Source: Bacillota bacterium (GTDB taxonomy: Bacteria > Bacillota > Clostridia > Christensenellales > UMGS416). Taken from it: a stretch of 64,000 bases of DNA. The stretch is taken from positions 14,184 through 78,183 of the forward strand of contig JAEYPH010000062.1 in NCBI GenBank assembly GCA_023410875.1, read 5' to 3'. The position numbers and the translations under genes are program-made. Every line of letters begins with the position of its first letter. Position 1 is the stretch's first letter. The notes under the pieces were generated by a model that was given only the letters and a program-made list of their open reading frames with translations, was not told the origin of the DNA and ran no database searches. Shown in pieces: positions 6,107 to 41,869 of this stretch.

Positions 6107-6188
6107 AAAAACCTCCAAACCCGCGGATTTGCCGATCTCCGCGGGAAAATCTTTCATACACGCTTCATGATGGATGATAATTTATACA

Positions 6189-6218
6189 ATTATACTCCTT
6201 TTTGGCAGGGTCGTGCAA
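6189..6218 (-). promoter_or_regulatory. putative sigma-A promoter of the aspS-gatCAB operon
   Basis: Minus strand reads TTGCAC, an 18-nt spacer, then TATAAT, about 75 nt upstream of the aspS start. Confidence 0.35.
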
Positions 6219-6265
6219 GTAGACTTGCAAGGACGTCCATGGATCGATGCATCAAATTTTGTGGT

Positions 6266-6293
6266 TGCTTTTTGACTGTCCTTTTGCTATAAT
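6266..6293 (+). promoter_or_regulatory. putative promoter of tRNA-Thr
   Basis: TTGCTT, a 16-nt spacer, then TGcTATAAT (extended -10), ending 27 nt before the tRNA 5' end. Confidence 0.4.
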
Positions 6294-6319
6294 ACCTTTC
6301 GCACCGGACAAACAATTTT

Positions 6320-6395
<76 letters not shown>

Positions 6396-6437
6396 GAAAG
6401 CAAAAGCCCCACCGCAAGGTGGGGTTTTTGCTTTCTC
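6396..6437. terminator. rho-independent terminator after tRNA-Thr (possibly bidirectional)
   Basis: AGAAAGCAAAAGCCCCACC-GCAA-GGTGGGGTTTTTGCTTTCT. A long stem with a U-run on the plus strand and an A-run on the other side, facing the GntR gene end at 6467. Confidence 0.6.
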
Positions 6438-6466
6438 TTATTACCGCTTCATGAGAATCTGACCGC

Positions 6467-6844
6467 CTACTCCTGGGCATCGTAATGTCGGTTGATCGCC
6501 CGTACAACTTCCTCACGCGATATGCCATGCTCCTTGTAGTACGCAACGTCCTTGGCTATCTTTGCATCCAGCAGCACATGGAGCTTGTTGCGCAGATCGC
6601 GGGCGGTTACGTCAGCGACAAAACAGCCCCGGCCCACCATGGAATGGAGCAAGCCATCGCGTTCCAGCTCCTCCCACGCCTTCTTGATCGTAATCACACT
6701 GACGCGCAGCTGCTTGGCGACGGTGCGTATCGGCGGCAGCATCGTGCCGGGCGGCAGTTTGCCGCTCATGATCTGCGCGCTGAGCTGCTCGTAAATCTGC
6801 TGGTAGATCGGCATATCTGACGCGCCGGAGATGATGATGTTCAT
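6467..6844 (-). CDS. GntR family transcriptional regulator (YtrA subfamily)
   Basis: 125 aa. Winged-HTH PPIRTVAKQLRVSVITIKKAWEELERDGLLHSMVGRGCFV with a short C-terminal tail, typical of YtrA-type regulators encoded with ABC transporters. Confidence 0.85.
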   Translation of the reverse strand: MNIIISGASDMPIYQQIYEQLSAQIMSGKLPPGTMLPPIRTVAKQLRVSVITIKKAWEELERDGLLHSMVGRGCFVADVTARDLRNKLHVLLDAKIAKDVAYYKEHGISREEVVRAINRHYDAQE

Positions 6845-6847
6845 CGA

Positions 6848-7486
6848 TTATAGATCGACTTTCTCAAACCGTTTTACCGAAAGCCGGTAGGAAGCGACGG
6901 TAAACCCGAAGAACAGCGCGATCCCGACAGCCAGCACGCCCAGATGCAAACCGATGTGCTGCGTGCCGTCCAGCACCCGGGCGGCCGGCACAAGCAGGAC
7001 GAGCATTTCGATGCCCGCGGCGATCAGCATGACCACGGCGGTGGCTACAGTAATGGGGATAGCGGTCTTGTAGGCGGTCTTATAGAACATCGGGAGCATG
7101 ATCAGATTGAATATTCCGTAGATCATAAACCCAAAGCCGATGTATGCGATGTTGGCATCAAGCATGAAGCTGCCCTGGGGATAGATCGCCATATTGATCA
7201 GTACGAATGCGGCCGTCACCACTAGCTGCAACAGCTCGAGCAAAGCCATGCTGAGCACGCGCGCCTTCACGATGTCGCGTCGGCGCACCGGCAGCAGCGC
7301 GGTGAACATGAGGTCGTTCTGCGCCTTGGAGCCGGAGAAGATATTGGGCACGGAAAAGAAGAAGAAATACATCAGCGCGAAGAAATACAGCCACTGCGGT
7401 ATCAGCACCAGGGCGCCGAACAGCGACATCAGCAGGAACGATGGGTGTATCGTCAGGCGAAACTCCTTATACACCAAATTCTTCAT
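6848..7486 (-). CDS. ABC-2 type transporter permease / polytopic membrane protein
   Basis: 212 aa and strongly hydrophobic (about 6 TM). Start overlaps the upstream ATPase stop by 4 nt. Confidence 0.65.
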   Translation of the reverse strand: MKNLVYKEFRLTIHPSFLLMSLFGALVLIPQWLYFFALMYFFFFSVPNIFSGSKAQNDLMFTALLPVRRRDIVKARVLSMALLELLQLVVTAAFVLINMAIYPQGSFMLDANIAYIGFGFMIYGIFNLIMLPMFYKTAYKTAIPITVATAVVMLIAAGIEMLVLLVPAARVLDGTQHIGLHLGVLAVGIALFFGFTVASYRLSVKRFEKVDL

Positions 7487-8334
7487 GAAGCACGCTCCTT
7501 CTTGGCGTAATAGATCATGATGTCTTCTAGGCTGGGCGCCTCCACAGCGAGGCCCTCGCCGGCGTGCAGGTCGGCCGTCCGGATCAGCCCGGCGAAGCCA
7601 AACGCATTTTCCTTGCTGGAAATCAAGCGGCTCGTGAGCGTGGGCAGCTGCTCCTGTGTGCCCTTGACCACGCGGTAAGAGGCGATCAGGTCGTCCTTTG
7701 AGCGGCTTTCGATGATACGGCCGTTTTCAATATAGGTGATATAGTCGGCGCACTTCTCCAAGTCGCTCGTGATGTGGGTGGAGAACAGTATGCTTCTCTC
7801 ACCGTCCTCGATCAGCTCCTGGAAAAGCTCCAGCAGGTCATCGCGAGCCACGGGGTCCAGGCCGCTGGTCGGCTCGTCGAGCAACAGCAGCCTTGCGTGA
7901 TGGGACATAGCGAGTGCCAGCGAGTACTTCACGCGCATGCCGCTGGACAATTCGTCCACCCGTTTGTTTTCGTCCAGCGCGAAGCGGCGTATATAGGTGT
8001 TGTAAGTCTTGTCATCCCATCGCGGATAGAAGCGACGCACGACCTGTGTGATGTGTCCAATCCTGCTCTTTTTGTAGTAATCGACGCCACCAATCATTAG
8101 GCCGATCTGCTGCTTGAGTACGAGCTCGTTCTCCACGAAGTCCTGATCCAGTATGCGCACCGTGCCGCCGTCGTGGTGCACCAAATTAAGTATGCATTTA
8201 AGCGTCGTCGTCTTGCCTGCGCCATTGCTGCCGATGAACCCCATGATGTATCCGGTTTCGAGCGAGAACGACACATCGCGCAAGCTGAAACTTGGGTAAT
8301 GCTTGCAGAGCCCCTCCACTGACAATATGGACAT
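7483..8334 (-). CDS. ABC transporter ATP-binding protein
   Basis: Walker A GSNGAGKTT, signature LSSGMRVKYSLALAM, Walker B LLLLDEPTSGLD. Start set at MSILSVEGL (ATG 8334, AGAGAGG RBS) rather than the ORF-track start at 8376. Confidence 0.9.
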   Translation of the reverse strand: MSILSVEGLCKHYPSFSLRDVSFSLETGYIMGFIGSNGAGKTTTLKCILNLVHHDGGTVRILDQDFVENELVLKQQIGLMIGGVDYYKKSRIGHITQVVRRFYPRWDDKTYNTYIRRFALDENKRVDELSSGMRVKYSLALAMSHHARLLLLDEPTSGLDPVARDDLLELFQELIEDGERSILFSTHITSDLEKCADYITYIENGRIIESRSKDDLIASYRVVKGTQEQLPTLTSRLISSKENAFGFAGLIRTADLHAGEGLAVEAPSLEDIMIYYAKKERAS

Positions 8335-8355
8335 GATTAACCTCTCTTTCGGAGA

Positions 8356-8405
8356 TTGTGTATAAATGGTATGCACAATATACTATTTTCTCGGAAGCCT
8401 GTCAA
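8356..8405 (-). promoter_or_regulatory. putative promoter plus inverted-repeat operator of the ABC-permease-GntR operon
   Basis: Minus strand reads TTGACA, a 17-nt spacer, then TATATT, followed immediately by the inverted repeat TTGTGCATA-CCATT-TATACACAA (one mismatch). This placement fits YtrA-type autoregulation. Confidence 0.45.
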
Positions 8406-8494
8406 GCATGGTAAGGAGTTTGCAGGAGTTGTTTCTGCGAGCCGACCTTGCTTTATGACTCAGGATATAGTTCGATGTTTTTTGCTATATGGAT

Positions 8495-8562
8495 GCTGAT
8501 GTAGCTCAGGAGGGAGAACAGTAAGGACGAGGTCACCAGTTCGAATCTGTTTAAGAGCTCCA
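8495..8562 (+). pseudogene. decayed tRNA-Thr copy
   Basis: GTAAGGACGAGGTCACCAGTTCGAATCTGtTTAAGAGCTCCA matches the 3' 43 nt of the tRNA at 6320-6395 with one mismatch. The 5' part keeps only GCTnnnnTAGCTCAG. The anticodon-stem 5' half is missing and the acceptor stem has 2 mismatches. The upstream TTTTGCTATA matches the -10 region of the intact gene. Confidence 0.6.
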
Positions 8563-8568
8563 GTAAAA

Positions 8569-8616
8569 CCTCGGTTGAACGCTCACTTATGAGTGATTCA
8601 ATCGGGGTTTGTTTTT
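8569..8616 (+). terminator. rho-independent terminator after the tRNA remnant
   Basis: CCTCGGTTGAA...TTCAATCGGGG forms an 11-bp stem (two G-U pairs), followed by TTTGTTTTT. Confidence 0.5.
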
Positions 8617-8761
8617 GTACTCTGGACAACATAGCGAACCGAGTCGAGATCGCTTGGCAGAGGCTATCACTGCCTCTAGCTATGCGTTTTTATTCAGTTC
8701 CTTAGCCTTTGCCAGGTGTAGCACGACGAGCTACTCTGCCCCTTTGCTCATGTGATGCGGT

Positions 8762-8811: not shown

Positions 8812-9555
8812 TTAGTTGTTTTCAAATACCATGGTTATCTTTTCGTTGTTAAAGAAACTGAATGCCGCGGCGTCAAGATCAATCTGAATTTTCATCCAGC
8901 CTTTCGGCACCTCATATGCCAATTGACCACGCAGTTTCTTACCTGCTGCAATAGTACCGTCCATCGTCTTAATCGAGTCGTCTGCTATCTGTGCAGATAT
9001 GGATTCGTTCATTGCTAGATCATCAACGTAAGCGTCAAACATAATCATAGAGCTGAAACTAACCTCTGAATCAGATGTGTTTTCGGCCAAAAGGACGATT
9101 TGGACAAACTCCTTACCATCTTCGGGTTTGTTGTATTCGTCTCCTTTAACTTTTTTAAAGCTTTCTATTGTCAGTTTAAACTCAGACGCTTGAATGACAT
9201 CCCCGGTGGTGAAGGTCTGGACGCTCGGAGACGACGACGCATCCTGTCCGGGCTCGCCTGAGGTCTTGCCTACTAACGAGGGAGGAGTCGCGGTAGCGCT
9301 TAGCGCGTCTGATACGGACGACATGCAGGATACGAAGACAATGATCACGATAATGATTATGACACCCAGTGCGATCAAGGATGCGATCAAGCAGCCCCTT
9401 TTCTTCTTTTGGGGTGGGTTTTGAACCACGTAAACGGGGGAGGGCTGCGGAGCTTGCGAGGATTGTGCTGGCGCTACGCCGGAAAGGGCTTGCCCGCACT
9501 TTTGACAAGAGATTGCTTTGTCGTCGTTCTGAGCACCACATTTGTTGCAATACAT
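8812..9555 (-). CDS. zinc-ribbon, single-pass membrane protein with extracytoplasmic beta-rich domain (DUF4352-like, from memory)
   Basis: 247 aa. N-terminal CxxC..CxxC (MYCNKCGAQNDDKAISCQKCG), a PQ-rich linker, a TM segment (LIASLIALGVIIIIVIIVFV), then a soluble domain. AT-rich gene. Confidence 0.6.
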   Translation of the reverse strand: MYCNKCGAQNDDKAISCQKCGQALSGVAPAQSSQAPQPSPVYVVQNPPQKKKRGCLIASLIALGVIIIIVIIVFVSCMSSVSDALSATATPPSLVGKTSGEPGQDASSSPSVQTFTTGDVIQASEFKLTIESFKKVKGDEYNKPEDGKEFVQIVLLAENTSDSEVSFSSMIMFDAYVDDLAMNESISAQIADDSIKTMDGTIAAGKKLRGQLAYEVPKGWMKIQIDLDAAAFSFFNNEKITMVFENN

Positions 9556-9635
9556 AGTCGATCCTCCTCATATTCTGGCGTGTATATCCAAACTATCATA
9601 TACTACCTGCGAAGATTGTCGAATGGTGCCAGATC

Positions 9636-10220
9636 TTATTCTATAGTCAAGATTTTGCTTACTTTTATTTTGCCGCGAGAAGCCATAACCTCAACCGTAA
9701 GGTCTGAGGCATCTCCCGCTTTATAGGCGCAGAATACCTTTTGTATGGCTCCGGGCTGCACTTTGTTTGAGGATGAAGCGTAATCGATTTCTGTATTTCC
9801 TATAATAAAGAACTGGCTGAGTTGCACGCCGTTCTGGTAAACTGTCGTATCAAATTCAGAACTGAAGGTAGTCACTTCGTCACCTTTATTTGTCCATTCG
9901 TAAACGATAATGACCAATTCTGTGTCGCCGAAAGATTCTCCCGTAATTGCTTCGAGTATTTTTACGTCGTGGCTGCCCGGCATTTCCGGTTTAACTGTCT
10001 GGGTTAGAACTGGATATTCAGTGGATGTTGCAATATAGCCGATAAGAGCCGGAACTATGATTACGACAACACCTAAAAAGAGAACGCCGAATGTGACCAA
10101 TCCAGCGATTAAGCACCCTGATGTTTTCTTTTTAACCGGTATCTTGGGTACGGGTGCGCCGCATTTCGTGCAATAATCCGCTCCTGCCATGAGAGGACTG
10201 CCACATCTTCTACAGTTCAT
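9636..10220 (-). CDS. zinc-ribbon, single-pass membrane protein (same architecture as 8812-9555)
   Basis: 194 aa. MNCRRCGSPLMAGADYCTKCG, a TM segment, then an extracytoplasmic domain. AT-rich. Confidence 0.55.
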   Translation of the reverse strand: MNCRRCGSPLMAGADYCTKCGAPVPKIPVKKKTSGCLIAGLVTFGVLFLGVVVIIVPALIGYIATSTEYPVLTQTVKPEMPGSHDVKILEAITGESFGDTELVIIVYEWTNKGDEVTTFSSEFDTTVYQNGVQLSQFFIIGNTEIDYASSSNKVQPGAIQKVFCAYKAGDASDLTVEVMASRGKIKVSKILTIE

Positions 10221-10365
10221 GTCGCGCTCTCCAGTGGTGCCTACAGTATCTTACGGGTAAGGCCATGACGAAGGAGGCATTATAGTAATCGCCTGGATTA
10301 TACCAATTCATCCATGTGTTATCAATAAAAACTGCAAAAAGTTGCCGAAGAATGCCGTTTTCACA

Positions 10366-11151
10366 TCACCTGTGCAGGTCTGCCTCCCGTTCGAGGACAC
10401 CCTCCCAATCGTCTTTCACCTTCTGATAGCCCATCTCATTCATGAACACAAACATGGCATCCAACAGCCTTAGTTGATCCTCCGCATTAGCATCTTTCGC
10501 GATGCGTTCCATAATGATTAGCAGTTCGCCATCGGGCAGCGGCTTTCTAATCAGCATGTGGAGCAGGTATGGCGCCCGATTGAGGAATGGCGCAACAAAT
10601 CCGTTGGCTGCCCACAAGGTTTCCACAAGGAATTCCATAGACCGTGCGGCCATTTGATACATGCCGAAGGTAAATCCGTGCCTGCGGCACTTGAGGGAGC
10701 GAAATACACCGTCATAATAGCTGTCCAGCTTTGCGGATATGATGCCGCCCAGTTCACACTGCGGGTAGCGAATTATTTCCCTCACGATATGCTCAAGCCT
10801 ACCATGGTCATCCAGCACATACATTGCATGCAGCAATTCGCGCACATCCGGGCCGCCGCGTGCATAGGCTTCAAGCTCAGATTCGGACGTTGCCCAGCAA
10901 TCCACATGTCGGCGCAGCTTGATGTGGGGCTCACGGTATTCCGGATGCCTTTTGAGCGCTTCATCGGTGAACACGACTTGTATGTCGTAGTCCGATGTTT
11001 CGTCGTCCATGCCTGCCGATATGGAACCAAGCAACATCGCTCCAACAAGCCCATCAAAGCCGTAGAGTTGCTTTGTCAACTCCCGGCGAATATATTCGAG
11101 TTCAGTCAAAATAGGATAGCCTCCCTCAATCAATGGGGATATGTGCCTCAA
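10366..11151 (-). CDS. nucleotidyltransferase-domain protein (KNTase/aminoglycoside-NTase-like fold)
   Basis: 261 aa. Minimal NTase motif LLGSISAGMDDETSDYDIQVVF (GS...D.D) plus a helical C-terminal domain. Substrate not inferable. Confidence 0.5.
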   Translation of the reverse strand: MRHISPLIEGGYPILTELEYIRRELTKQLYGFDGLVGAMLLGSISAGMDDETSDYDIQVVFTDEALKRHPEYREPHIKLRRHVDCWATSESELEAYARGGPDVRELLHAMYVLDDHGRLEHIVREIIRYPQCELGGIISAKLDSYYDGVFRSLKCRRHGFTFGMYQMAARSMEFLVETLWAANGFVAPFLNRAPYLLHMLIRKPLPDGELLIIMERIAKDANAEDQLRLLDAMFVFMNEMGYQKVKDDWEGVLEREADLHR

Positions 11152-11157
11152 ACAGTA

Positions 11158-12543
11158 TCAGCCCTTATTAACCCACACCGCAACCGCCGGCAAAACAAGC
11201 TTATTCCGCTCATACAAAGCGGGAATCTCTCTTTCCTGCAGCGGCGCATCCTGGCAGCCGACCTCCACGGTCACAGAAGGGATGCCCCCATGGGCCATCG
11301 CCCAGTCCTTGAACCCGCCGGCCTCCAGCTCATCATCCTTTGTCGGCGCATATCCGGTTACATCCTGAATGGCCCGAGCAAGGTCATAAGATTGCTTCAC
11401 GACACTTACATCGTCGCCGTAGTCATAGTACAGCATGGAGCCCGTAGCGTGGTAGCTGACCGTCGCCGCGAAGGAATGCTTTTGTGCGTATTGCGCCAAG
11501 GCCCGGCTCTCGCTCTGATCCACCGGCGCGGCCCCTTTGTAGCGCTCGGACGAGGGCTGATCCCGTATGTCCAGCTCGTCCCACGAAGCATCGAAGTTCC
11601 TATTCAGGTCTACGCCCCGCGCGTTGGCCTTCCATAGAGCTGCATACTCATCGGGGCTGCTTTTCGTGTACCTATTGGCCTTGTCACTCTCGTATATCGC
11701 CATCTGCTGTTCCGACAGCACACGCTGCTGGCTGATCTTGACGCCGTCGGGGTTGCTCATGGGTATGATGTGGAAGCTCACGTCCTCCAGCGCCTCTTTG
11801 ATCGAGCCGCCCATGAAGTCGCGGCTGCCGGATGCAAGCATGTACTCCGCCTGGGCCATGACCAACCAGACGGTCGCGTGTTCCCGCCCATGCATGGCCC
11901 CCTGCACGAGCACCTGATGCTTGGCGTCCGGGTTCCCGACGATCATGACCGGGATATCCGCGCCCTCCTCGCTACGGCCTATGCTGCCCAGCGTCACCTT
12001 GGAGGGATACTTCTTCTTGAGCTTCTCCATGTCGTCCAGCATTTGTTCGTAGCTGTAGTTCTCCACCGGGCGCACGATGCGCAGCTCGCTCTCGAACCCG
12101 CCGGACGCGGGCTTCACATAGCTCGAGAGGATATAGCCTTCCAGTGAGCCGTATTTGACCTTTGCAAACACCCCTATGAACCCGAGGACTTCCACGGATT
12201 CTCCCTTGAGCACCTTGCGGATGGACTTGGCTCCATAGTCCGGCGCTTCGCGCAGGGATACGGATTCATCACAGTTGGCCAACCACTCCGCTGCGCCGGC
12301 GTTGGGGGCAAGAACATTGGTGGGCGTAGGCTCAAACCGGCTATGGGCGGTTGCGCCGGCGGTGTTCATCGGCTGGCCCTCCTGGCGCTTGCCGGCTGTG
12401 ACGTCGGGATCGGCAGGCATTCCCCAGGCGGCGGGCGGCTCGAAGTGAGCCATCTGGCCCAGAAAGACGCCTATACCCGAACAGGCGCTCAAAAGCAGGA
12501 CGCACAGCGCCGGCAGCAAGATTGTGATTTTATTGTATTTCAT
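11158..12543 (-). CDS. M14-family metallocarboxypeptidase lipoprotein with SH3-like domain
   Basis: Lipobox LLLSAC. An SH3b-like segment (SVSLREAPDYGAKSIRKVLKGESVEVL). M14 zinc motif HGREHAT. Start set at MKYNK (12543) instead of 12594; the RBS is weak, so the start is uncertain. Confidence 0.7.
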   Translation of the reverse strand: MKYNKITILLPALCVLLLSACSGIGVFLGQMAHFEPPAAWGMPADPDVTAGKRQEGQPMNTAGATAHSRFEPTPTNVLAPNAGAAEWLANCDESVSLREAPDYGAKSIRKVLKGESVEVLGFIGVFAKVKYGSLEGYILSSYVKPASGGFESELRIVRPVENYSYEQMLDDMEKLKKKYPSKVTLGSIGRSEEGADIPVMIVGNPDAKHQVLVQGAMHGREHATVWLVMAQAEYMLASGSRDFMGGSIKEALEDVSFHIIPMSNPDGVKISQQRVLSEQQMAIYESDKANRYTKSSPDEYAALWKANARGVDLNRNFDASWDELDIRDQPSSERYKGAAPVDQSESRALAQYAQKHSFAATVSYHATGSMLYYDYGDDVSVVKQSYDLARAIQDVTGYAPTKDDELEAGGFKDWAMAHGGIPSVTVEVGCQDAPLQEREIPALYERNKLVLPAVAVWVNKG

Positions 12544-12681
12544 GGTTTCGTTCGCTAAGCTCCGTTTTTCTTTTGTTGCGGCGATGCGGCACAAAGCGCG
12601 GCAATCTCCGGTTGTGCGACAACTCTTAGACTCGCGAACCCGGAGAAACGTTCCACGCGCGCTTGCCTCAGTCCAGAGCTT

Positions 12682-14111: not shown

Positions 14112-14867
14112 TTACTTGCAATAGATTGCCACCGCGTCCCTTAAGAATTCCGCGCACCCCGGCGCGATCTTGTCATAGTATTCGGTGAAGCGGGGATCGT
14201 CCACATACATCTGCGTGACACCCAGATGGGCCTCGCGGCTGTAGCTATCCCAAAAGAAGCACAGCCACCGCTTGTGCAGCTCGCAGGCCTTTTGCGCCAG
14301 CTCGCTGGCCGGGTCGCCCTGGGCGAAGGCAGCCTTGAGCGTGTCGTTAAGCTCCTGGGTGAGGGCCTCCATACGGGCATATTGCTCGCGGGTCATGCCC
14401 ATAACCTTGGCATTGGACTTGTTCACGGCGTCGTCGCCGAACTTGGTGCGCGCCTCGGCCCCAAACTGCCTTTCGTTCTCGTCGATCGTTTCTTGCTTAA
14501 AGCACTCGAACTTTTCCTTGTCACTCATATCAATTTCTCCTTTCATGTCTTGCAGTGTGCGCTCCAACGTGCCCAGTAGCCGCTGCAGCCGCTGGATGCG
14601 CTGGTTGAGCAGCTCGCGCTGCTGCATGAGCGCCTGCTCGCGGTTAAAGTCGGGGCTATCCAGCAGCGTGGATATTTCCTCCAGCGGGAAATCCAACTCC
14701 CGCAGGAAGAGGATTTGCTGCAGACGCTCCAGCTCCGCCGGCCCGTAGAGCCGATAGCCCGCGTCGGTGCGCCCGCCAGGTCGCAGCAGGCCGATGGCGT
14801 CATAGTGGTGCAGCGCCCGCACGGTGACGCCGGAGAGTTTTGCCAGCTGCTGTACGGTGTAGGTCAT
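14112..14867 (-). CDS. MerR family transcriptional regulator, TipAL/Mta class
   Basis: N-terminal MTYTVQQLAKLSGVTVRALHHYDAIGLLRP..AGYRLYG MerR HTH, a coiled coil, and a C-terminal TipAS-like domain. AAGGAGG RBS precedes ATG 14867. Confidence 0.85.
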   Translation of the reverse strand: MTYTVQQLAKLSGVTVRALHHYDAIGLLRPGGRTDAGYRLYGPAELERLQQILFLRELDFPLEEISTLLDSPDFNREQALMQQRELLNQRIQRLQRLLGTLERTLQDMKGEIDMSDKEKFECFKQETIDENERQFGAEARTKFGDDAVNKSNAKVMGMTREQYARMEALTQELNDTLKAAFAQGDPASELAQKACELHKRWLCFFWDSYSREAHLGVTQMYVDDPRFTEYYDKIAPGCAEFLRDAVAIYCK

Positions 14868-14892: not shown

Positions 14893-14923
14893 AGTGTAAA
14901 CCATCACGCTGCGTCAGGGTCAA
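14893..14923 (-). promoter_or_regulatory. MerR-type promoter with 19-bp spacer and internal dyad
   Basis: Minus strand reads TTGACC, then ctgacgcagcgtgatggtt (19 nt), then TACACT. The spacer contains the imperfect dyad TgACGC-A-GCGTgA. The over-long spacer is the hallmark of MerR-regulated promoters. Confidence 0.5.
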
Positions 14924-14958
14924 GCATTTTCTATAAAGTTTTTTGTCGGTTGTTCGGA

Positions 14959-14987
14959 TTGATGCATGGCGGGGGATGCTGTATGAT
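14959..14987 (+). promoter_or_regulatory. putative promoter of the ATP-grasp pair
   Basis: TTGATG, a 17-nt spacer, then TATGAT, divergent from the merR promoter. This places the transcription start downstream of the ORF-track start 14950 and favours ATG 15028. Confidence 0.35.
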
Positions 14988-15027
14988 GGAAGGAACAAAC
15001 CGCGATTTCATCGCCATCGGGAGCGCA

Positions 15028-15915
15028 ATGAGTTCACTGACCACCTGGTTGATATACAACGGTTCCCTGCAGACGCCCAAGTTCGCCGAGCTCGTGCAGT
15101 GGCTGTGCCGCAGCCTGCAAGACCATGATGTGCACCCCGAGGCCCTGAGCAACACGCAGGTGGCCGCGGTCATCGACGGCGGCAGCATCGCCCTGCGGGC
15201 GGAGTTGCCGGATTTCGTACTGTTCTGGGACAAGGACATCCGCCTGGCGCTGCAACTGGAGGCGCTGGGCCTGCGGCTTTTTAACCGGTCACAGGCCGTG
15301 GCCACGTGCGACGACAAGGCGCTCACGCACATCGCTTTGAGCAACCGCGGCATCGCGATGCCCCGCACGCTGGTGGCGCCGCTGGTGTTCCCGGGGCACA
15401 GCGAGCATGACGGGCGCTTTGTGCAGCGGGCCATGGATGAGCTGGGTTTCCCGATGGTCGTCAAGGAGTGCTTCGGCTCCTTTGGCGCGCAGGTGTATTT
15501 GGTGCACAATGAGAAGGAACTCGATGACTTGCATCGCCGGTTGATGCATACGCCCCATCTGGCGCAGGAATTCATCGCCTCGAGCTGCGGGCGGGACGTG
15601 CGCTTGCAGGTTGTGGGTGACCGTGTGGTGGCCTCGGTGCTGCGTGTGAGCGACCACGATTTCCGCGCCAACGCCAGCAACGGCGGCGCGATGCACCCCT
15701 TCGACGCGCCGCGGGAGTTCGTGGACATGGCGGTGCGCTGCTGCGACATCCTGGGTGCGGACTTCGCCGGCGTGGATTTGCTCTTTGGGCCGGAGGATCA
15801 ACCGCTGCTGTGCGAGGTCAATTCCAACGCCCATTTCAAGAACCTGTACCACTGCACCGGCGTGGACGTGGCGGACGCCATGGCCCGCCACATGCGAGAG
15901 GTGATGTTGCGATGA
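15028..15915 (+). CDS. RimK-family ATP-grasp ligase (alpha-L-glutamate-ligase-like), paralog 1
   Basis: ATP-grasp core PMVVKECFGSFGAQVYLV, EFI....GRDVRLQVVGDRVV, RimK-like DFRANASNGGAM, and GADFAGVDLLF...LLCEVNSNAHF. Start uncertain (15028 preferred; the ORF is open from 14950). Confidence 0.75.
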   Translation: MSSLTTWLIYNGSLQTPKFAELVQWLCRSLQDHDVHPEALSNTQVAAVIDGGSIALRAELPDFVLFWDKDIRLALQLEALGLRLFNRSQAVATCDDKALTHIALSNRGIAMPRTLVAPLVFPGHSEHDGRFVQRAMDELGFPMVVKECFGSFGAQVYLVHNEKELDDLHRRLMHTPHLAQEFIASSCGRDVRLQVVGDRVVASVLRVSDHDFRANASNGGAMHPFDAPREFVDMAVRCCDILGADFAGVDLLFGPEDQPLLCEVNSNAHFKNLYHCTGVDVADAMARHMREVMLR

Positions 15916-16730
15916 AGCGCGGCTGGCTGCTGTATGCCCGCGCGGAATACCTGCGCAACCGTCCTTTTGCGGATTTGTTCGTGCACATGGGCGGCTCATA
16001 CGGGCTGGATGTCGCCCTCAAGCTCAGCGAAGAGCTGACGCTGCCGCTGGGCGATTGGGCACAACCGGAGTTTGTCATCAACCGCACCCGCGACGCGGGG
16101 TTGGCGGCGCTGCTGCAGGATATGGGCTGCCGCGTGTTCAACCCAGCGGCCACGGCGCTGTGCGGCAACGACAAGGCCCATGCGCTGGCGCTGGCCCGGC
16201 GGCTGGGGCTGCCGGTTCTGCCCTCGGTCCTGTGCGCCAATTCGCCTGAGGCGCTGGTGCGCCACGGCCTGGGCTACCCCGTGGTGGCCAAGGACCCGGC
16301 AGGTCACGGCGGCAGCGCCGTGTTCCTGGCCCGCGATGAGGACGCGCTGCTGGGCTGCGCGCTGCGCATCCCCGGCAACCGGGTGCTGGTGCAGCGGTTG
16401 AGCGACGAGCCCGGTGTGGATGTGCGCTTTTATGTGATCGGCGGCGAGGTGCTCCAGTCCGTGCGCCGCAGCAGCCGCACGGATTTTCGCGCCAATGTCT
16501 CTTTGGGCGGCACGGCGGAACTCTACGAGCCAATGGCGCAAGAACTTGCCATGGTACGCCGGATGTGCGGGGCACTAACGCTGGATTATGCCGGTGTGGA
16601 CTTCATCCGCCACGGCGGCGCTTTGTGCTTCAACGAGCTGGAGGACATGGTGGGCAGCCGTGCGCTGTTTCAGCTGGGCCACAACCCCGTACCCGATTTC
16701 CTGGCCCATATTCAGCGCGTTTTGGCGTAG
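15912..16730 (+). CDS. RimK-family ATP-grasp ligase, paralog 2
   Basis: YPVVAKDPAGHGGSAVFLA, VLVQRL....GVDVRFYVIGGEVL, DFRANVSLGGTA, and LDYAGVDFI....CFNELEDMVG. Start overlaps the paralog-1 stop (ATGA 15912-15915). Confidence 0.75.
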   Translation: MKRGWLLYARAEYLRNRPFADLFVHMGGSYGLDVALKLSEELTLPLGDWAQPEFVINRTRDAGLAALLQDMGCRVFNPAATALCGNDKAHALALARRLGLPVLPSVLCANSPEALVRHGLGYPVVAKDPAGHGGSAVFLARDEDALLGCALRIPGNRVLVQRLSDEPGVDVRFYVIGGEVLQSVRRSSRTDFRANVSLGGTAELYEPMAQELAMVRRMCGALTLDYAGVDFIRHGGALCFNELEDMVGSRALFQLGHNPVPDFLAHIQRVLA

Positions 16731-16814
16731 AGGAGACAGAATTTTACAACTCGGTCAAGACAGGGCCATATAAACGGGGTATAATAAACCCGTATATGCG
16801 TCCGGGAGGAATCG

Positions 16815-17720
16815 ATGGATATCCACAATGAACAAAAGCTGGCCGTGCTCATAGACGCGGAGAACGTTTCCTATGGCTGGGTGAAGCCCATCATGGCGGA
16901 GATCGCCCGCTATGGCAACCCGACCATCAAGCGCATCTACACCGACTGGACGCAGCCCGCCGCCGGCGGCTGGAAGAATGTGCTGCTGGAATACGCGATC
17001 ACGCCGATCCAGCAATACCGATACACGTCCGGCAAGAATTCCTCGGATTCAGCGATGATCATCGACGCCATGGATCTTCTCTATTCCCAGAAGGTGGACG
17101 GCTTCGTGATCGTCAGCTCCGACAGCGATTTTACGCGGCTGGCCCAGCGCCTGCGCGAGGCCGGCATGCGCGTCATAGGCATAGGCGCCAAAAAGACCCC
17201 CGTGCCCTTCAAGGCCTCCTGCGAGCGCTTCATCTACATAGAGAACCTCAAGGAGGGCAACGGCGAGCCCCCTGTGGCCGTGGTGGCCCCGGCGGCGCCG
17301 GCGGCCGCGCCGGCCAGCGCTTCTGTTGCGGCCAACCAGCAGGCCCACCCGCCCAAGAGCGGCAACGGCAAGGCCGCGCAGAACGCCCAGGCAGTGCAGG
17401 CCGCCCAGGCCGCTGCGGCGGCTGCAGCCGCCATCGTGGCCGCTGCCACCGCGCCCGACCCGCAAGACGACGAGTCCTTCACGGTGGACAAGCTCACCAA
17501 GATCCTGCAGACGACAATTGCCGACGTGGCCGAGGAATCCGGGTGGGCATCGCTATCCGACGTGGGCAGCCTGCTGGCCAAAAAGATGCCCGACTTCGAC
17601 ACCCGCAACTATGGTCACCGTACGCTTACGCCGCTCATCGAATCGCTAAGCGCCTTCGAGGTGGACAAGCGCCAGACCGGCCGGCCCAATATTTGGCACG
17701 TATACATCAAGAACAAGTAA
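16815..17720 (+). CDS. NYN-domain (LabA-like) protein with C-terminal OST-HTH/LOTUS domain
   Basis: N-terminal KLAVLIDAENVS...GKNSSDSAMIIDAMDLLY..VDGFVIVSSDSDFTRLAQRLREAGMRVIG (NYN). An Ala/Gln-rich low-complexity linker. C-terminal ..LSDVGSLLAKKMPDFDTRNYGHRTLTPLIESL.. (OST-HTH-like). Confidence 0.8.
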   Translation: MDIHNEQKLAVLIDAENVSYGWVKPIMAEIARYGNPTIKRIYTDWTQPAAGGWKNVLLEYAITPIQQYRYTSGKNSSDSAMIIDAMDLLYSQKVDGFVIVSSDSDFTRLAQRLREAGMRVIGIGAKKTPVPFKASCERFIYIENLKEGNGEPPVAVVAPAAPAAAPASASVAANQQAHPPKSGNGKAAQNAQAVQAAQAAAAAAAAIVAAATAPDPQDDESFTVDKLTKILQTTIADVAEESGWASLSDVGSLLAKKMPDFDTRNYGHRTLTPLIESLSAFEVDKRQTGRPNIWHVYIKNK

Positions 17721-27602: not shown

Positions 27603-29867
27603 TTATTTAGTGCCTTCCACCACATAATCCGGTGCGTCCTTGGCCGGCAGGAAGGTTGATATCACTCCATCTCCTCCCTTGTACTTGATGAACACAACAT
27701 AGCCGCCTTCGCTGGCGAGGAACAGGCTGCGCGAGCGGGACAGCACCTCCTGCTGCTGCGCCTTGTCGGTCAGGAAGAGCTTCAGGCCATCGCGCTCCTT
27801 ATATCCTTCAATATCCTGCTGCGCCCCGAACCCGCTGTAGAACATCGGGAAGGAGTGCAGCGCATTGTAGTCGTAGGAGTGGCTTATCTTGCTGTAATCC
27901 AGCAGGCTGACATACTCAATCTCTGCGGTGTTCTGTATCGCGTCCATCCAACCGTTTTCCCGCAGGTAGGCCAGCGTTTCGGTGAACTGCTCCGTGACGT
28001 ATACAAATCCGCCCTCGTAGCCGGCGTCTTCCAACGTGCTGCCCTGCGCTGTGAACGCCAGGATGCACGTCTCCGGCTTTGCCGGCAGATAACGGTCCTC
28101 CGGCGTCTGGGCGGCCAGGTCGTTGGCGATGCAGTTCAGCAGATCTTTACGCCGCCGCTCCACAAGTTGAAGTCCCTCGATGGCACTAAAAAACGGCGCG
28201 CACAGATAAACGTTGCCAGCGCGATAGGGCGCGGTGTCCAAGCCAGGCTGTTCGTCCTCGTCCGACAGCAGATAGTCGCGATAGGCCTTTTTCACCGCCG
28301 CAGTGTTGTCCAGCGCCATCATGGCCCTGATCAGGTCCGGCGTCAGCGCTTGGTAGGCGCGGGTCACGGTGCTGCCGTTTGCCATCGTGTAGGTGATCTG
28401 GGTGGCAGCGCCATACGCCCGGCCGCCGTCCACTTTCATGGTCCGGTTCAGCAGGCCCACCTGTGTCAGCGCGCGGTGAACCTCAATCGCCGCGGCGATG
28501 TCTGCTTTGTCCACCAACGTAATGTCATTTTGAAAACTCATGTCCGGCACGAGCCCGCCCTGACCGCCACCGCCATTGTTGGGCATGTAGAAGTCCAGCC
28601 CGTTGTAGGTCATCTTTATGCTCTTCACGGCGTCGGCAGCCGGCACGAATCCGCTAAAGCCCAACCCGCCGGAAAGGAACCCCCCCGCCAGCGCCAGCAT
28701 GGCGGCCAGGCCTGCGCCCAAGGGCAGCAGGCCCTTCCACACCCGGCGGCGCAGCAGCCGCAGCGGGAGCGCCGCCGCCAGCATCACGCCGCCGGCTGAC
28801 GCCGCCGCGATGGACAGCATGGCGCCGGTGGAAAGCTTCATCGTGGTATACAGCGGCAGCATGTACACAAGCCCGAAGGCGAAGAAGCCGACGGTCAGCA
28901 TGCTGGCGTAGGCGGTGGCCTTGCCCGCGCCCAGCACGCCGGTGTGCTCCACACCGGTCTTCAGGAAGACCCGGTGGGCGAACCACAGCAGCGCGCCCGT
29001 GGCCGCCAGCCAACCCGGTATCAGTGCCCAGCGGATGGGCAGCGGGGGCAGGCTGGCCAGGTATTCCTGATAGCCGGTGACGAGTTTCGACTCGTGACTG
29101 AAGCGGCTGATATATTGGCTCATGAAGATCAGCGGATTCCAGTCCGACAGTTCGCGAACCAACGAGGTGTTCCAGCTGTAGTAGAGCGTATCTGAAAGGC
29201 CAAAGCCGTTGCCGGGCAGCAGGTGCAGCAGCAGCCCGTTCAGGCTCATCCCAAGCAGGGTGGGCAGCGCCATCAGGATCAACGAATAGGCGATGCCTTC
29301 TGCCAGCGTCTTGCAGGCGCAGCACACGAGCACGACTACGCTGTATAGTGCCAGTATCTGCAGGCCCATGCCCAGCGTAAAGAAGGCGATCCGCGCCAGC
29401 GCCAGCCCCACATCGGCGAACAGCACCAGGTTGACCGCCAGCGAAGCCAGCATTGTGACAACCAGTGGCAGCAGTGCGCCTGCGGCTCCCGCCGCGTAGC
29501 GCGAGCAGAACAGCTCATGGCGCGAAAGCCCCATGCCGAACCACGCGTTGGCGGCGCTGCGGTTGAAAAGGAAGCGGAAGGCCATCACGCCCTGCAGCAA
29601 TGCGGACAGCAGCGCCAGCGCCGGGAAAAACAGGCTCAGCGTCGAGCCGTCGAACAAGCAATACTTTATGGAGTTGTATGGGGCTTCGCCCTGCCCGTTG
29701 AGCGAGGTTATTATCACGATGATGGGCAGCACGATCACCGCCAGAAAGAGGATGGTGCACAGTATCGTCAGCAGCATGCCTTCGCCGATGGCCTGCCAGA
29801 AGGAGTGGGCCCACGGGCGGTACCGCCGCACCCTGCTATTCGCCGTCAAAGAGACCTGAGAAGTCAT
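27603..29867 (-). CDS. large polytopic membrane protein with about 330-aa C-terminal soluble domain (putative permease partner of the adjacent ABC ATPase)
   Basis: 754 aa. About 12 hydrophobic segments in the first 420 aa, then a non-hydrophobic domain with no motif I recognise. Overlaps the ATPase stop by 32 nt (start uncertain). Confidence 0.6.
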   Translation of the reverse strand: MTSQVSLTANSRVRRYRPWAHSFWQAIGEGMLLTILCTILFLAVIVLPIIVIITSLNGQGEAPYNSIKYCLFDGSTLSLFFPALALLSALLQGVMAFRFLFNRSAANAWFGMGLSRHELFCSRYAAGAAGALLPLVVTMLASLAVNLVLFADVGLALARIAFFTLGMGLQILALYSVVVLVCCACKTLAEGIAYSLILMALPTLLGMSLNGLLLHLLPGNGFGLSDTLYYSWNTSLVRELSDWNPLIFMSQYISRFSHESKLVTGYQEYLASLPPLPIRWALIPGWLAATGALLWFAHRVFLKTGVEHTGVLGAGKATAYASMLTVGFFAFGLVYMLPLYTTMKLSTGAMLSIAAASAGGVMLAAALPLRLLRRRVWKGLLPLGAGLAAMLALAGGFLSGGLGFSGFVPAADAVKSIKMTYNGLDFYMPNNGGGGQGGLVPDMSFQNDITLVDKADIAAAIEVHRALTQVGLLNRTMKVDGGRAYGAATQITYTMANGSTVTRAYQALTPDLIRAMMALDNTAAVKKAYRDYLLSDEDEQPGLDTAPYRAGNVYLCAPFFSAIEGLQLVERRRKDLLNCIANDLAAQTPEDRYLPAKPETCILAFTAQGSTLEDAGYEGGFVYVTEQFTETLAYLRENGWMDAIQNTAEIEYVSLLDYSKISHSYDYNALHSFPMFYSGFGAQQDIEGYKERDGLKLFLTDKAQQQEVLSRSRSLFLASEGGYVVFIKYKGGDGVISTFLPAKDAPDYVVEGTK

Positions 29868-39576: not shown

Positions 39577-40045
39577 GTACCAGGTGGGGCTCGGCCTTGG
39601 CCTGTGCCGAGGGGATGAAGCGCCCCTGGCGGTTGATGAACAGGCCGTCCAGCACGAAGCTGGCCTTCTGCATGCGCACTGGGCGCTGGCTGTAGATGGC
39701 CAGCAGGGCGTTCTCTTCCAAACCACCGGTGCGCTCCAGTATGCGCCGCTGGGCCTCAGAAGCCAGCGCCTGCGCCACACCGCAGCCTATAAAGGGTTCA
39801 AACACGACAAAATCCAATACTTCCGGCAGCAGATCCTCGGCCTGCTCGGCGCCGAACCACCCAACGCGGGCGAACCCCGCCGGCTGGCTGGCCACTTCCA
39901 CGACCAGCAAATCCACCTCGCCGCTGCGCGCCAGCACGAACCAGCGTTCCAGCGCCGCCGTGCCCAGGTCGCGCCCCTGGCGGCGGAAGGCTTCCGACAG
40001 CCCATGGTAATCCGACGGTAGCATGCTGCGCACGATGATGCCCAT
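39533..40045 (-). CDS. GNAT-family N-acetyltransferase (weak)
   Basis: 170 aa. A beta4-alpha3-like segment VVFEPFIGCGVAQALASEAQRRI. The 3' end overlaps the AEC gene convergently by 44 nt. Confidence 0.55.
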   Translation of the reverse strand: MGIIVRSMLPSDYHGLSEAFRRQGRDLGTAALERWFVLARSGEVDLLVVEVASQPAGFARVGWFGAEQAEDLLPEVLDFVVFEPFIGCGVAQALASEAQRRILERTGGLEENALLAIYSQRPVRMQKASFVLDGLFINRQGRFIPSAQAKAEPHLVLSLSGHRLQSQTQP

Positions 40046-40167
40046 GGCGTTCTCCTGTACCGATTATAAGCCCATTCTATGCGACAGTGAACAAAGGGGC
40101 AACCGGGGAAAGCTGCCGTTCCTTGACGAGTTTTGTTGGTTATGGGCCGGTGGGATTGTTCGCTATG

Positions 40168-40698
40168 CTAACTAAATTTATTAACTATATCAACTGTAGG
40201 ATATCCTAACACTCTTGCTGCATTATAGGCAATTAAATAGAAGTTGCTGTTATAAAGACTATGTAGAATTTTATTGATATCTTCATCGTTAAAATCAGGA
40301 AGTAGATAGATAACATCAATAAGTTGATATTCAGTCTTAGGTAGTTGTTTTGTCAACAGTAAGGTTGTTTTTTTTGCCTCCTCTAGCATTTTCTCGTCCT
40401 TATTAATAGAAAAAACAGCATGCGCTATTGCAATCCTGATAAAGCCATTGCTTCCCGGTAATAGATTATATAAATATGGCAATGACGAGAAAGACCTGAT
40501 ATGACCTAATCCTCTGATAGGCCATGAATCGTCTAAACTCAACGCATCTATTAACTCACTTTCTGCGATTTTCAAATCATCGGCTGAGAGCTCATCTAAA
40601 AGATTAAGTGGAACACCATCTTTTCTCTGTGCCCAGGTTTTGGCATTTAAAAATTCAGAACGGAAAATATTTAGGCTTTCTGATGGCTGAGAGTCCAT
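40168..40698 (-). CDS. hypothetical protein, helical-repeat-like (AT-rich islet)
   Basis: 176 aa. No motif recognised. About 32% GC in a hand-counted line. Confidence 0.45.
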   Translation of the reverse strand: MDSQPSESLNIFRSEFLNAKTWAQRKDGVPLNLLDELSADDLKIAESELIDALSLDDSWPIRGLGHIRSFSSLPYLYNLLPGSNGFIRIAIAHAVFSINKDEKMLEEAKKTTLLLTKQLPKTEYQLIDVIYLLPDFNDEDINKILHSLYNSNFYLIAYNAARVLGYPTVDIVNKFS

Positions 40699-40797
40699 AT
40701 CGACATTACCTTTCTTAGCAAAAAAATCCTCAGTCCAATATTAATAATCTTGAATAGATTTATCATCTTCCACCTCATAAGAGCATACGCACTTCAG

Positions 40798-41613: not shown

Positions 41614-41869
41614 AGTATAAATCCGCAGTCAAAACTCACCCGTTTATTAGTCGATATTAATTATAGCATAAAAGATTGTGATTTTTTGGGTCGCGTGAAT
41701 ATTGCCTGCATCTTTCAATACGGCGAAGCGGTGCCATTGAGAGGCCGTATGCAATACGGCCCTACGAAATTGCGTAAGAAACTGGCAAGCGTTGCCACAA
41801 ACAAAAAAACCGCTTCACCCACCTACTAAACTTCGGCGGCAAAGCGGCTGACAAAAGAGGTTGGCGAAT

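Follow-up and report, generated by a model that had tools for sequence, protein, structure and literature searches.

A 64-kb stretch of genomic DNA from a Bacillota bacterium (the window) carries two adjacent genes for ATP-grasp ligases, A and B, with the gene of a MerR-family regulator divergent to them, and this layout raises two questions: what reactions the ligases perform, and whether the regulator controls them. RimK-family ligases modify ribosomal proteins, carrier proteins and cofactors; an earlier note on this DNA had proposed two successive ligations in a modification system inducible through a TipA-class MerR protein. Both parts of that proposal are considered here, together with the possible acceptors.

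The two ligases

Ligase A (15028..15915, plus strand) is a RimK/LysX-clade ATP-grasp carboxylate-amine ligase of 295 aa. Its reading frame is open from 14950 to 15915, and the ATG at 15028, preceded by a GGGAG ribosome-binding site at 15019-15023, is the start that fits the N-termini of the homologues (MxxxxGWIIYNG); public gene calls use ATG 14983 (310 aa), an upstream codon that falls within the predicted -10 box of the A-B promoter. The protein scored 115 bits against PF08443 RimK in a Pfam search (cut-off 21) and 192 bits against NCBIfam TIGR00768 rimK_fam (cut-off 143.4), and it is thus a member of this subfamily. Its DFRAN...GG motif spans residues 211-220, and its AlphaFold2 model (pLDDT 93.8) matched RimK (5zct) and ArgX (3vpb) with a TM of 0.81 in Foldseek. 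The ATP-grasp set that was scored comprised the ATP-binding Lys, the Gly-rich loop, D-x-R, (R/K)-x-N..GG and the Mg ligands D...E-x-N; all of it is invariant in 71 ligase A orthologues, with K146, D190, R192, R213, N215, D250, E263 and N265 among the unvarying residues.

As for ligase B (15912..16730, plus strand; start ATG at 15912, stop codon at 16728-16730), it is a divergent RimK/LysX-clade ATP-grasp ligase of 272 aa that scored 66 bits against PF08443 (cut-off 21) and 98.5 bits against TIGR00768, below the cut-off of 143.4, which places it outside the curated subfamily. Its DFRAN...GG motif lies at residues 191-200, and its model (pLDDT 94.5) matched ArgX 3vpb with a TM of 0.85. The two ligases are 34% identical over 192 aa (E = 1e-22), and HMM score and predicted fold assign both to the Pfam RimK/ATP-grasp superfamily, so that the earlier description of two paralogous RimK-family ligases of 295 and 272 aa sharing DFRAN..GG was borne out.

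The active sites differ in a consistent manner. Ligase B, whose C-terminal substrate loop also departs from that of A, has NE(I/L)EDxVGxR in place of the CEVNSNAHFKN of ligase A, and its last Mg-ligand Asn is an invariant Glu, giving E-x-E versus the E-x-N of A, a difference that makes two distinct ligations likely. Sixteen ATP-grasp signature positions are unvarying in 71 B sequences with a mean identity of ~42%, a constancy that indicates selection for catalysis; K127, G131, G133-134, Q161, D170, R172, N195, G199, D230, E242, E244, D245 and R250 are invariant, and within the ATP-grasp set only position 193 alternates, between Arg and Lys. Ligase B is therefore probably catalytic, as judged from these residues. 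The opposite reading, in which B is a regulatory or scaffolding paralogue and A the sole active ligase, would accord with the greater divergence of B, its score below the rimK_fam cut-off, the Asn-to-Glu change at the Mg site, the frameshift in the B gene of one locus (L087) and the eight loci (in Amphibacillus, Evansella and some Clostridia) that have A without B, from which it follows that A can work without B. It is set against the invariance of the ATP-binding Lys, the Gly-rich loop and the D/E Mg ligands among those 16 positions, and we regard it as very unlikely.

Transcription of the pair and the neighbouring MerR gene

The stop and start codons of A and B overlap as ATGA at 15912..15915 on the plus strand (cgATGAag), and the arrangement, read from the sequence, is one of translational coupling, in agreement with the earlier note. 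Of the 73 loci with B downstream of A, 17 share this -4 overlap and 12 overlap in some other way. A promoter scan predicted a sigma-70/sigma-A promoter for the A-B operon at 14959..14987 on the plus strand (TTGATG, 17 bp, TATGAT), 35 bp from the -35 box of merR; there is no dyad in its 17-bp spacer, and its sequence is kept in the related locus L007. In other lineages, A stands behind ordinary sigma-A-like promoters, identified by eye, or directly after ftsK, valS or other genes. Sporulation-specific expression of the pair was considered and rejected in view of the sigma-A-like promoters upstream of A. Rfam scans of the window and eight diverse loci revealed no riboswitch or T-box ahead of A. 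The sole matches in these scans were valS T-boxes and one unrelated SAM riboswitch.

The divergent gene (14112..14867, minus strand; ATG after AAAGGAGG) encodes a MerR-family regulator of 251 aa with the Pfam domains MerR_1 (HTH), MerR-DNA-bind and a C-terminal TipAS (130 bits). Its HTH gave a PADLOC match to mad1 (46.6 bits) that is confined to residues 1-50. The promoter/operator of merR itself occupies 14893..14923 on the minus strand and consists of TTGACC (14923-14918), a 19-bp spacer with the dyad ACGCAGCGT, of the form ACGCnGCGT, and TACACT (14898-14893); the 19-bp-spacer, dyad-bearing promoter described earlier was hence confirmed. Position 14893, where the reported feature begins, is the outer edge of the merR -10 box. 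The pattern TTGACCN3ACGCNGCGTN7TAYACT occurs a single time in the 64-kb window and in none of 100 shuffles, even when up to 2 mismatches were tolerated, and the operator is also found ahead of the merR orthologues in L007 and L008. From its sequence, merR is probably autoregulated; the MerR HTH, the TipAS domain and the autoregulatory-looking 19-bp-spacer promoter with its internal dyad give the gene its likeness to TipAL/Mta-type MerR systems, a likeness confined to this neighbour, as no operator faces the ligase operon.

Activation of the divergent A-B operon by the TipA-class MerR, as an antibiotic-inducible modification, would be in keeping with the divergent layout across a merR/A intergenic region of 160 bp, the TipAS domain, the 19-bp-spacer promoter and the position of merR in L008 (ligase A 64% identical), still upstream and divergent. 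However, neither a second operator nor a long-spacer promoter faces A in the window; the only 19-bp-spacer promoter points into merR, and A-B has a standard 17-bp-spacer promoter of its own. Moreover, in L008 merR diverges not from A but from a TrmH-like gene that separates the two, and merR is near A-B in just 2 of 80 genome loci (L007, adjacent; L008, ~1 kb away), being missing from the other 78. The operator sits inside the promoter of merR and accompanies that gene in relatives, which weakens the MerR-A-B link, and the MerR/TipAS gene appears to be a neighbour and not a regulator of A-B. The inducible system put forward in the earlier note was not supported by these comparisons; we judge it highly improbable, and for this window it is gene adjacency from which the antibiotic-inducible picture was drawn.

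Downstream of B, a gene for an NYN ribonuclease-like protein with OST-HTH/LOTUS (16815..17720, plus strand) is preceded by a promoter-like site at 16757-16785 and is syntenic with A-B in close relatives only, for which reason it was not counted in the A-B module. An anti-phage defence system was also considered and rejected, with no PADLOC matches for A, B or the NYN protein.

Pairing, gene contexts and relation to known ligases

Ligase A is encoded in 80 genome loci of Bacilli and Clostridia, among at least 598 matching stretches, and the carriers of the pair include soil Bacilli and gut Lachnospiraceae and Oscillospiraceae. In 72 of 82 loci its partner follows within 250 nt; the pair was found across ~30 gene contexts in Bacilli and Clostridia, so the prospect that it might be absent or unlinked in relatives was not realised. 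Pairwise identities of A and of B run together (r = 0.84, 2415 locus pairs), a sign of co-evolution of the two families, and natural A-B fusion proteins exist (P0241, P0242 and P0243, 575-582 aa); two of them, P0241 and P0243, are 53% identical, meaning that the fusion has persisted through considerable divergence. Different active sites, co-inheritance, coupling and fusion in the A-B order make two consecutive ligations on one acceptor most likely, and the two successive ligations of the earlier note fit this pairing, the fusions and the retained catalytic residues of B. A literature search found no published work on the A-B pair.

Regarding the acceptor, neighbour genes were clustered across the 82 loci and ~60 were annotated with Pfam or NCBIfam; this gene-neighbourhood survey, which the earlier note had suggested, found stable A-B pairing and no single conserved partner beyond lineage synteny. 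Similarly, no conserved small ORF was present from -3 to +4 kb of A-B in these loci (5368 small ORFs clustered), the only clusters being shadow ORFs of A, B and ftsK, which means that neither a LysW-like carrier nor a RiPP precursor is linked to A-B. Four themes recur near the pair (folate, translation, cell wall and sporulation), each too weak for significance. As for folate, folC adjoins A-B in 8 Bacillaceae loci and follows it with a 16-nt gap in the order valS-A-B-folC of L045; folC and a folT-looking gene lie 2 kb downstream in L008; in 23 Lachnospiraceae loci the pair has fhs beside it or nearby, and in L093 fhs stands directly 3' of the fusion gene; and purU is two genes upstream in L030. 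The association amounts to ~4 of ~30 contexts, with P ~0.02-0.03 as a rough post-hoc estimate, and translation, cell-wall and sporulation genes are equally common near A-B.

In two loci of distant lineages, Paenibacillus (L030) and a Lachnospiraceae MAG (L076), the pair is flanked by a formylglutamate-amidohydrolase-like (FGase-like) gene (PF05013, 42.8 bits) and a gene for a membrane-anchored partner, and the ligase A proteins of these loci are just 44% identical. A 33-aa remnant is present upstream of A in L016, and in L099 the FGase-like and membrane-partner genes are fused and stand beside a third, divergent RimK-like ligase. Metagenome scans gave no matches with the FGase-like protein and four loci with the membrane-anchored partner.

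Placement among the characterised ligases was judged by NCBIfam equivalog scores, and no orthology to a characterised two-ligase pathway, a relation that would have told against the earlier note, was found. RimK is the ribosomal protein S6:L-glutamate ligase that glutamylates the S6 C-terminus. Proteins of this type (4iwx, 5zct, 5zk6, 7qyr) have in common with A and B the PF08443 domain, a three-domain ATP-grasp fold of ~290 aa and the DxR, FRxN..GG and D..ExN signature residues; yet identity is ~25%, RimK of E. coli and Pseudomonas is a single gene where A-B is a paralogue pair or fusion of Bacillota, and A and B reached 80.4 and 48.6 bits on RimK proper (NF007764, cut-off 331). LysX and ArgX are ligases that act on the amino-group carrier protein LysW; structures of this group (1uc8, 3vpb, 3vpd, 5k2m) include ArgX, the best structural match of B, and their model TIGR02144 (cut-off 275.6) is the top-scoring equivalog for A, at 148.6 bits, with 67.3 bits for B. 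The EVNHTMEFKN of LysX also resembles the EVNSNAHFKN of ligase A, whereas no LysW-like carrier or lysine or arginine biosynthesis genes are linked to A-B in the 82 loci.

MptN and CofF, two alpha-L-glutamate ligases of methanogens, cap tetrahydromethanopterin and F420-gamma-Glu2. Scores on their models were 94.6 (A) and 40.4 bits (B) for MptN (NF040720, cut-off 350) and 75.4 and 20.0 bits for CofF (TIGR04443, cut-off 300), all below the cut-offs. Addition of Glu to the tail carboxylate of a cofactor by RimK-family enzymes is nevertheless the analogy behind the folate-tail idea discussed below, even though the hosts of MptN and CofF are methanogens and those of A-B are not. The JGI label 'gamma-F420-2:alpha-L-glutamate ligase' on A-B-type proteins is doubtful for the same reason, and it is probably an automatic annotation transfer. 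For graspetide maturases, ligase A scored 47.6 on TIGR04187 (cut-off 350), 22 on TIGR04184 (475) and 18 on TIGR04185 (425), and the small-ORF clustering across the 82 loci showed no adjacent precursor peptide; for glutathione synthetase GshB (cut-offs 272-299), A and B scored 21.7 and 24.9 bits on NF003573, and B 19.9 bits on TIGR01380, again below the cut-offs.

A precedent for the layout comes from linked ATP-grasp ligases that work in series (PMC4431377, PMC8141765). MyfA and MyfB, two ATP-grasp Glu ligases, build the polyglutamate chain of methylofuran (PMC8141765); compared by description, they resemble A-B in that two different ATP-grasp ligases act in sequence on the Glu tail of one cofactor and MyfB is RimK/MptN-like, and they differ in that MyfA is MfnD-like and no RimK paralogue, and in their hosts, methylotrophic Proteobacteria.

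Proposed function and alternatives

The A-B module is widespread in endospore-forming Bacillota, and its acceptor is not encoded alongside. On the basis of the predicted folds, catalytic-residue conservation, pairing, fusion and promoter/operator geometry, we hold it rather probable that A-B is a self-contained housekeeping module of two RimK/LysX-type ligases that performs two consecutive ligations from its own promoter, without regulation by MerR. From the chemistry of the family, each ligase would use ATP to convert a carboxylate into an acyl-phosphate, on which an amino acid would then attack through its amino group; L-glutamate is the most probable amino acid, a choice that we infer from family membership and the FGase-like neighbour only. 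A and B would catalyse different ligations, one after the other, on one acceptor, be it initiation followed by extension or the addition of two different residues; they would probably act as a complex and be expressed from the predicted sigma-A-type promoter. The acceptor is presumably a common cell component; the analogy with MptN, CofF and MyfA/MyfB points, if weakly, to a cofactor such as folate, whose glutamyl tail would be the leading candidate.

That the pair performs a two-step remodelling of such a tail, which would be new to Bacillota, is a tentative and on balance unlikely reading. The most attractive version, drawn from the same analogies, would be folylpolyglutamates capped or extended with an alpha-glutamyl residue or another amino acid, and the FGase-like amidohydrolase with its membrane-anchored partner would then make the modification reversible in some lineages. 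We know of no alpha-glutamylated folate in Firmicutes. A protein acceptor, S6 or another, also seems unlikely: RimK (among its structures the RimK-RpsF complex, 5zk6) and two LysW-modifying enzymes, ArgX and LysX, are indeed the closest solved folds, translation neighbours are frequent (valS, asnS, prfA-prmC, ABC-F, TrmH-like and NYN genes), and the hydrolase partners are reminiscent of the RimB logic of Pseudomonas (PMC11957791). Still, both ligases score far under the RimK cut-off (80 and 49 bits against 331), E. coli RimK works singly, no target gene is linked, and translation genes are so common that their presence nearby is not significant.

That the pair makes a free di- or tripeptide, or a short poly-amino acid, in two steps with a glutathione-like logic is quite unlikely. 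This reading agrees with the score of B on Pfam GSH-S_ATP, just over the cut-off (24.1 vs 23), with the lack of a linked acceptor gene, with the housekeeping-looking promoter, and with the polyglutamate that RimK and MyfB form from free glutamate in vitro (PMC8141765). Against this, the glutathione synthase equivalog scores are 20-25 bits versus 272-299, and the pair lacks a consistently linked gene for an exporter or a consumer. The known L-amino-acid ligases are, to our knowledge, larger and of another ATP-grasp subfamily, which also counts against a free peptide.

A peptidoglycan acceptor (a precursor or stem peptide, modified for example by a branch or an alpha-carboxyl substitution) is suggested by an LD-carboxypeptidase gene directly after B in five loci (L021, L052, L057, L086 and L092), blaI and a blaR1-LytR fusion inserted between A and B in L017, S11 carboxypeptidases in L006 and L089, uppP near the pair and an SH3-domain M14 peptidase inside the 64-kb window. 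Cell-envelope genes are numerous, though, and their enrichment near A-B is not clear; the ATP-grasp peptidoglycan enzymes that we know of (Ddl, D-Asp ligase) fall into other subfamilies, and among the host genera are taxa whose peptidoglycan has plain, direct meso-DAP cross-links. Such an acceptor is very doubtful.

In conclusion, the probable two-enzyme housekeeping module consists of two distinct RimK-family subfamilies that are conserved as a pair or fusion in at least several hundred Bacillota genomes. Naming its acceptor could bring to light a new modification, of a cofactor or a protein, in one of the major bacterial phyla; the automatic labels 'gamma-F420-2:alpha-L-glutamate ligase' and 'S6 modification protein', which are widespread, would be corrected as well.

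The two ligase genes and their products

Gene A, the upstream member of the ligase pair, lies in a plus-strand frame open over 14950-15915, and gene B, the downstream member, in one open over 15810-16730 on the same strand (ORF scan), with its ATG at 15912 and a product of 272 aa. Regarding the start of A, public gene calls place it at ATG 14983 (310 aa); the N-termini of its homologues (consensus MxxxxGWIIYNG), taken with a ribosome-binding site (GGGAG, 15019-15023) and the promoter-like site described below, point to ATG 15028, giving a predicted protein of 295 aa. The ATG of B overlaps the TGA of A (cgATGAag), and both products match Pfam RimK (115 bits for A, 66 bits for B), so that the earlier note was correct in describing RimK-like ligases joined by an ATGA overlap. 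A passes the NCBIfam rimK_fam model (192 bits; cut-off 143 bits) and B fails it (98.5 bits); the two are 34% identical over 192 residues. AlphaFold2 predicts both with high confidence (pLDDT 93.8 and 94.5), and the models superpose on RimK, ArgX and LysX with TM of 0.81-0.85.

In family A (71 sequences), the conserved residues are K146, the GSFG loop, Q180, D190-x-R192, D-F-R-A-N..GG, D250 and E263-x-N265. Family B, with a mean identity of only ~42% (71 sequences), keeps K127, G131-H-G-G, Q161, D170-x-R172, F-(R/K)-x-N195..GG and D230, together with an invariant E242-x-E244-D245..G248-x-R250. The last Mg ligand is thus Asn in A and Glu in B, and the loop after it is also different; on these grounds, B is probably not a dead paralogue but a distinct enzyme with activity of its own.

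Spread of the pair and natural fusions

Relatives of A are encoded in at least 598 stretches in the genome scan; the best 80 of them are all from Bacillota, save two MAGs labelled Desulfovibrionaceae, and include Gracilibacillus, Peribacillus, Virgibacillus, Terribacillus, Paenibacillus, Heliorestis, Lachnospiraceae and Oscillospiraceae. In 72 of 82 non-redundant loci B follows A within 250 nt: the two genes overlap by 4 nt (-4) in 17 and by some other length in 12, and spacings are 0-20 nt in 14, 21-60 nt in nine and 61-250 nt in 20. Pairwise identity among the A proteins correlates with that among the B proteins (r = 0.84, 70 loci). At one further locus (L017, 7977-12335, Mobilisporobacter senegalensis) 2.6 kb separate A from B, the insert comprising blaI and a blaR1-LytR fusion gene; in the genome GCA_002797295 (L089, 7001-14538) the insert is a GerA/GerAC/spore-permease germinant-receptor cluster. 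No B occurs in the flank of A in nine of the 82 loci, one of which ends at the contig end; A stands alone in eight loci and so can function without B. In L087, whose A is a 64% identical relative, B is split over two frames (7890-8740), either a frameshift/pseudogene or an assembly error.

Natural A-B fusions form three database clusters (P0241-P0243, 575-582 aa), with an N-terminal A-type half (CEVNSNAHFKN) and a C-terminal B-type half (NEIEDVVGARMLY). P0241 and P0243 share only 53% identity; the fusion has thus been maintained while the sequences diverged considerably. Fusion genes occur in L093 (6654-8381), L094 and L095, that of L093 being flanked by ftsK and the gene for formate-tetrahydrofolate ligase. 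This is classic Rosetta-stone evidence, from which A and B would be expected to work together, in A-then-B order.

The MerR neighbour and the rest of the window

The divergent gene merR (14112-14867, minus strand) encodes a MerR HTH and a TipAS domain by domain search, and its promoter, 5' of the RBS and ATG on the minus strand, reads TTGACC, 19 bp (CTGACGCAGCGTGATGGTT), TACACT, with the dyad ACGCAGCGT inside the spacer; the TipA-class regulator and 19-bp spacer of the earlier note are therefore confirmed. The promoter/operator pattern has one match in 64 kb and none in 100 shuffles, two mismatches allowed; among 99 fetched loci it occurs only 5' of merR orthologues (L001, L002, L007 and L008), L001 and L002 being public copies of the window's own locus. 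The L008 MerR is only 41% identical to that of the window, and its gene diverges from a gene resembling a TrmH-like methyltransferase, not from A. The long-spacer promoter reads into merR itself; in tipA and mta, such a promoter likewise drives the regulator's own gene.

As for A-B, a promoter-like site, TTGATG-17-TATGAT, is found at 14959-14987 on the plus strand (promoter scan), its -35 box 35 bp from that of merR, and no dyad or long-spacer promoter faces A in this region. The neighbourhood survey bore out the pairing of A and B and not the tie to the regulator: only 2 of 80 related genome loci have a MerR homologue close to A-B. The MerR-controlled inducible system of the earlier note is not upheld, and we conclude that the reading as an "inducible modification system" derives from adjacency alone, the MerR/TipAS regulator being most plausibly a neighbour under its own control.

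Downstream of B, 16815-17720 encodes an NYN ribonuclease-like and OST-HTH/LOTUS protein with an Ala/Pro/Gln-rich low-complexity linker (promoter-like site 16757-16785), a gene kept downstream of A-B in the close relatives L003, L007, L008 and L087; L084 has an unrelated NYN-domain gene upstream of A. Three genes from A-B, and not conserved with the pair, is a gene (11158-12594, minus strand) for an M14 carboxypeptidase that carries an SH3_3 domain and is secreted or lipid-anchored; the protein has a weak MpaA-like match and is reminiscent of gamma-D-Glu-meso-DAP peptidases. Two tandem paralogues with a zinc-ribbon and DUF5067/DUF4352 (8812-10220) occupy a stretch of lower G+C (0.47 vs ~0.6 elsewhere), by an ABC-2 transporter pair (6848-8376). 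A low-G+C island (40001-42000; 0.44), which may have been horizontally acquired, has on its minus strand a 176-aa ORF lacking any Pfam match (40168-40698) and a gene for a class I methyltransferase (40798-41613). A putative 754-aa ORF in high-G+C sequence (27603-29867, minus strand) has no Pfam match at E <= 1e-4, and the window's only Rfam match at gathering threshold is a tRNA gene at 6320-6392 on the plus strand (RF00005, 69.8 bits).

Candidate acceptors and proposed function

The gene contexts of A-B are very diverse (~30 types). Peribacillus has the order valS-A-B-folC on one strand, with a B-folC gap of 16 nt in L045; in Bacillus sp. OV322, a Peribacillus sp. (L077) and Virgibacillus, A-B is inverted, with valS on one side and folC on the other, and in Terribacillus it adjoins folC. 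L008 has folC and a folT-looking gene 2 kb downstream of A-B; 23 Lachnospiraceae loci have fhs 0-4 genes downstream, and in L093 it comes directly after the fusion gene; purU is two genes upstream in Paenibacillus thermotolerans. By a rough, post hoc count, folate genes appear in 4 of ~30 independent contexts vs ~1 expected (P ~0.02-0.03), a suggestive link.

A second lead is a conserved two-gene unit, X-Y, that flanks A-B in a Paenibacillus (L030, purU-X-A-B-Y; genes at 7291-7998 and ~9763-11442) and in a Lachnospiraceae MAG (L076, X-Y-A-B; 6132-6719 and 6732-7949), whose A proteins are only 44% identical and each group with their own class. X is an N-formylglutamate amidohydrolase family protein (PF05013; 42.8 bits in L076), and Y combines a double-psi-barrel-like region with a C-terminus that is hydrophobic and probably spans the membrane. 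In L016 (Peribacillus kribbensis), a 33-residue stretch exactly 5' of A (7865-7963) is 42% identical to the C-terminal part of X, a weak match (E = 0.036, small local database) that may be a decayed remnant of it. A metagenome scan with Y found X adjoining it in four of four matches (L096-L099): L099 has a 620-aa X-Y fusion next to an ABC exporter and a third RimK-like ligase, itself divergent, and L096 and L097 have X-Y without any ligase, beside a glutaminase-A-like gene. X and Y are both absent from the window. An N-acyl-glutamate-type amidohydrolase beside the ligases would fit reversible glutamate addition.

A and B fall far under the cut-offs of every characterised equivalog scored: 75 and 20 bits (A and B, respectively) vs 300 for CofF, 95 and 40 vs 350 for MptN, 80 and 49 vs 331 for RimK, 149 and 67 vs 276 for LysX, 22 and 25 vs 272 for glutathione synthase NF003573, and, for graspetide maturases, 18-48 for A and no hit for B (cut-offs 350-475). 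The labels "S6 modification protein" and "gamma-F420-2:alpha-L-glutamate ligase" are probably automatic transfers. A small-ORF search around the pair found no LysW-like carrier or precursor peptide. Of the acceptors weighed, a glutamyl-tailed cofactor such as folate, to which the folate genes point, is a possible if rather unlikely one, a protein C-terminus such as that of S6 is unlikely, and a peptidoglycan precursor is the most improbable; a free peptide as product is doubtful. Translation genes are frequent neighbours of A-B, as are cell-wall and sporulation genes, though no more so than expected, since these genomes have many of them. Rfam scans of the window and eight diverse loci found no riboswitch or T-box 5' of A, PADLOC no defence-system match for A-B, and a literature search no paper describing the two ligases.

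Serial action by linked ATP-grasp ligases has precedents (PMC4431377), as with MyfA/MyfB (PMC8141765). In the mechanism proposed here, A-B would be a housekeeping two-enzyme ATP-grasp system, in which both enzymes would activate a carboxylate as an acyl-phosphate and join it to an amino acid, probably L-glutamate; A and B, probably in physical association, would catalyse two distinct ligations in succession on a common cellular acceptor. In conclusion, A-B represents a widespread, uncharacterised RimK-type module that is made up of two subfamilies, of which B is the distinctive one, and that also occurs as natural fusions; it makes a good target for the discovery of enzyme function.
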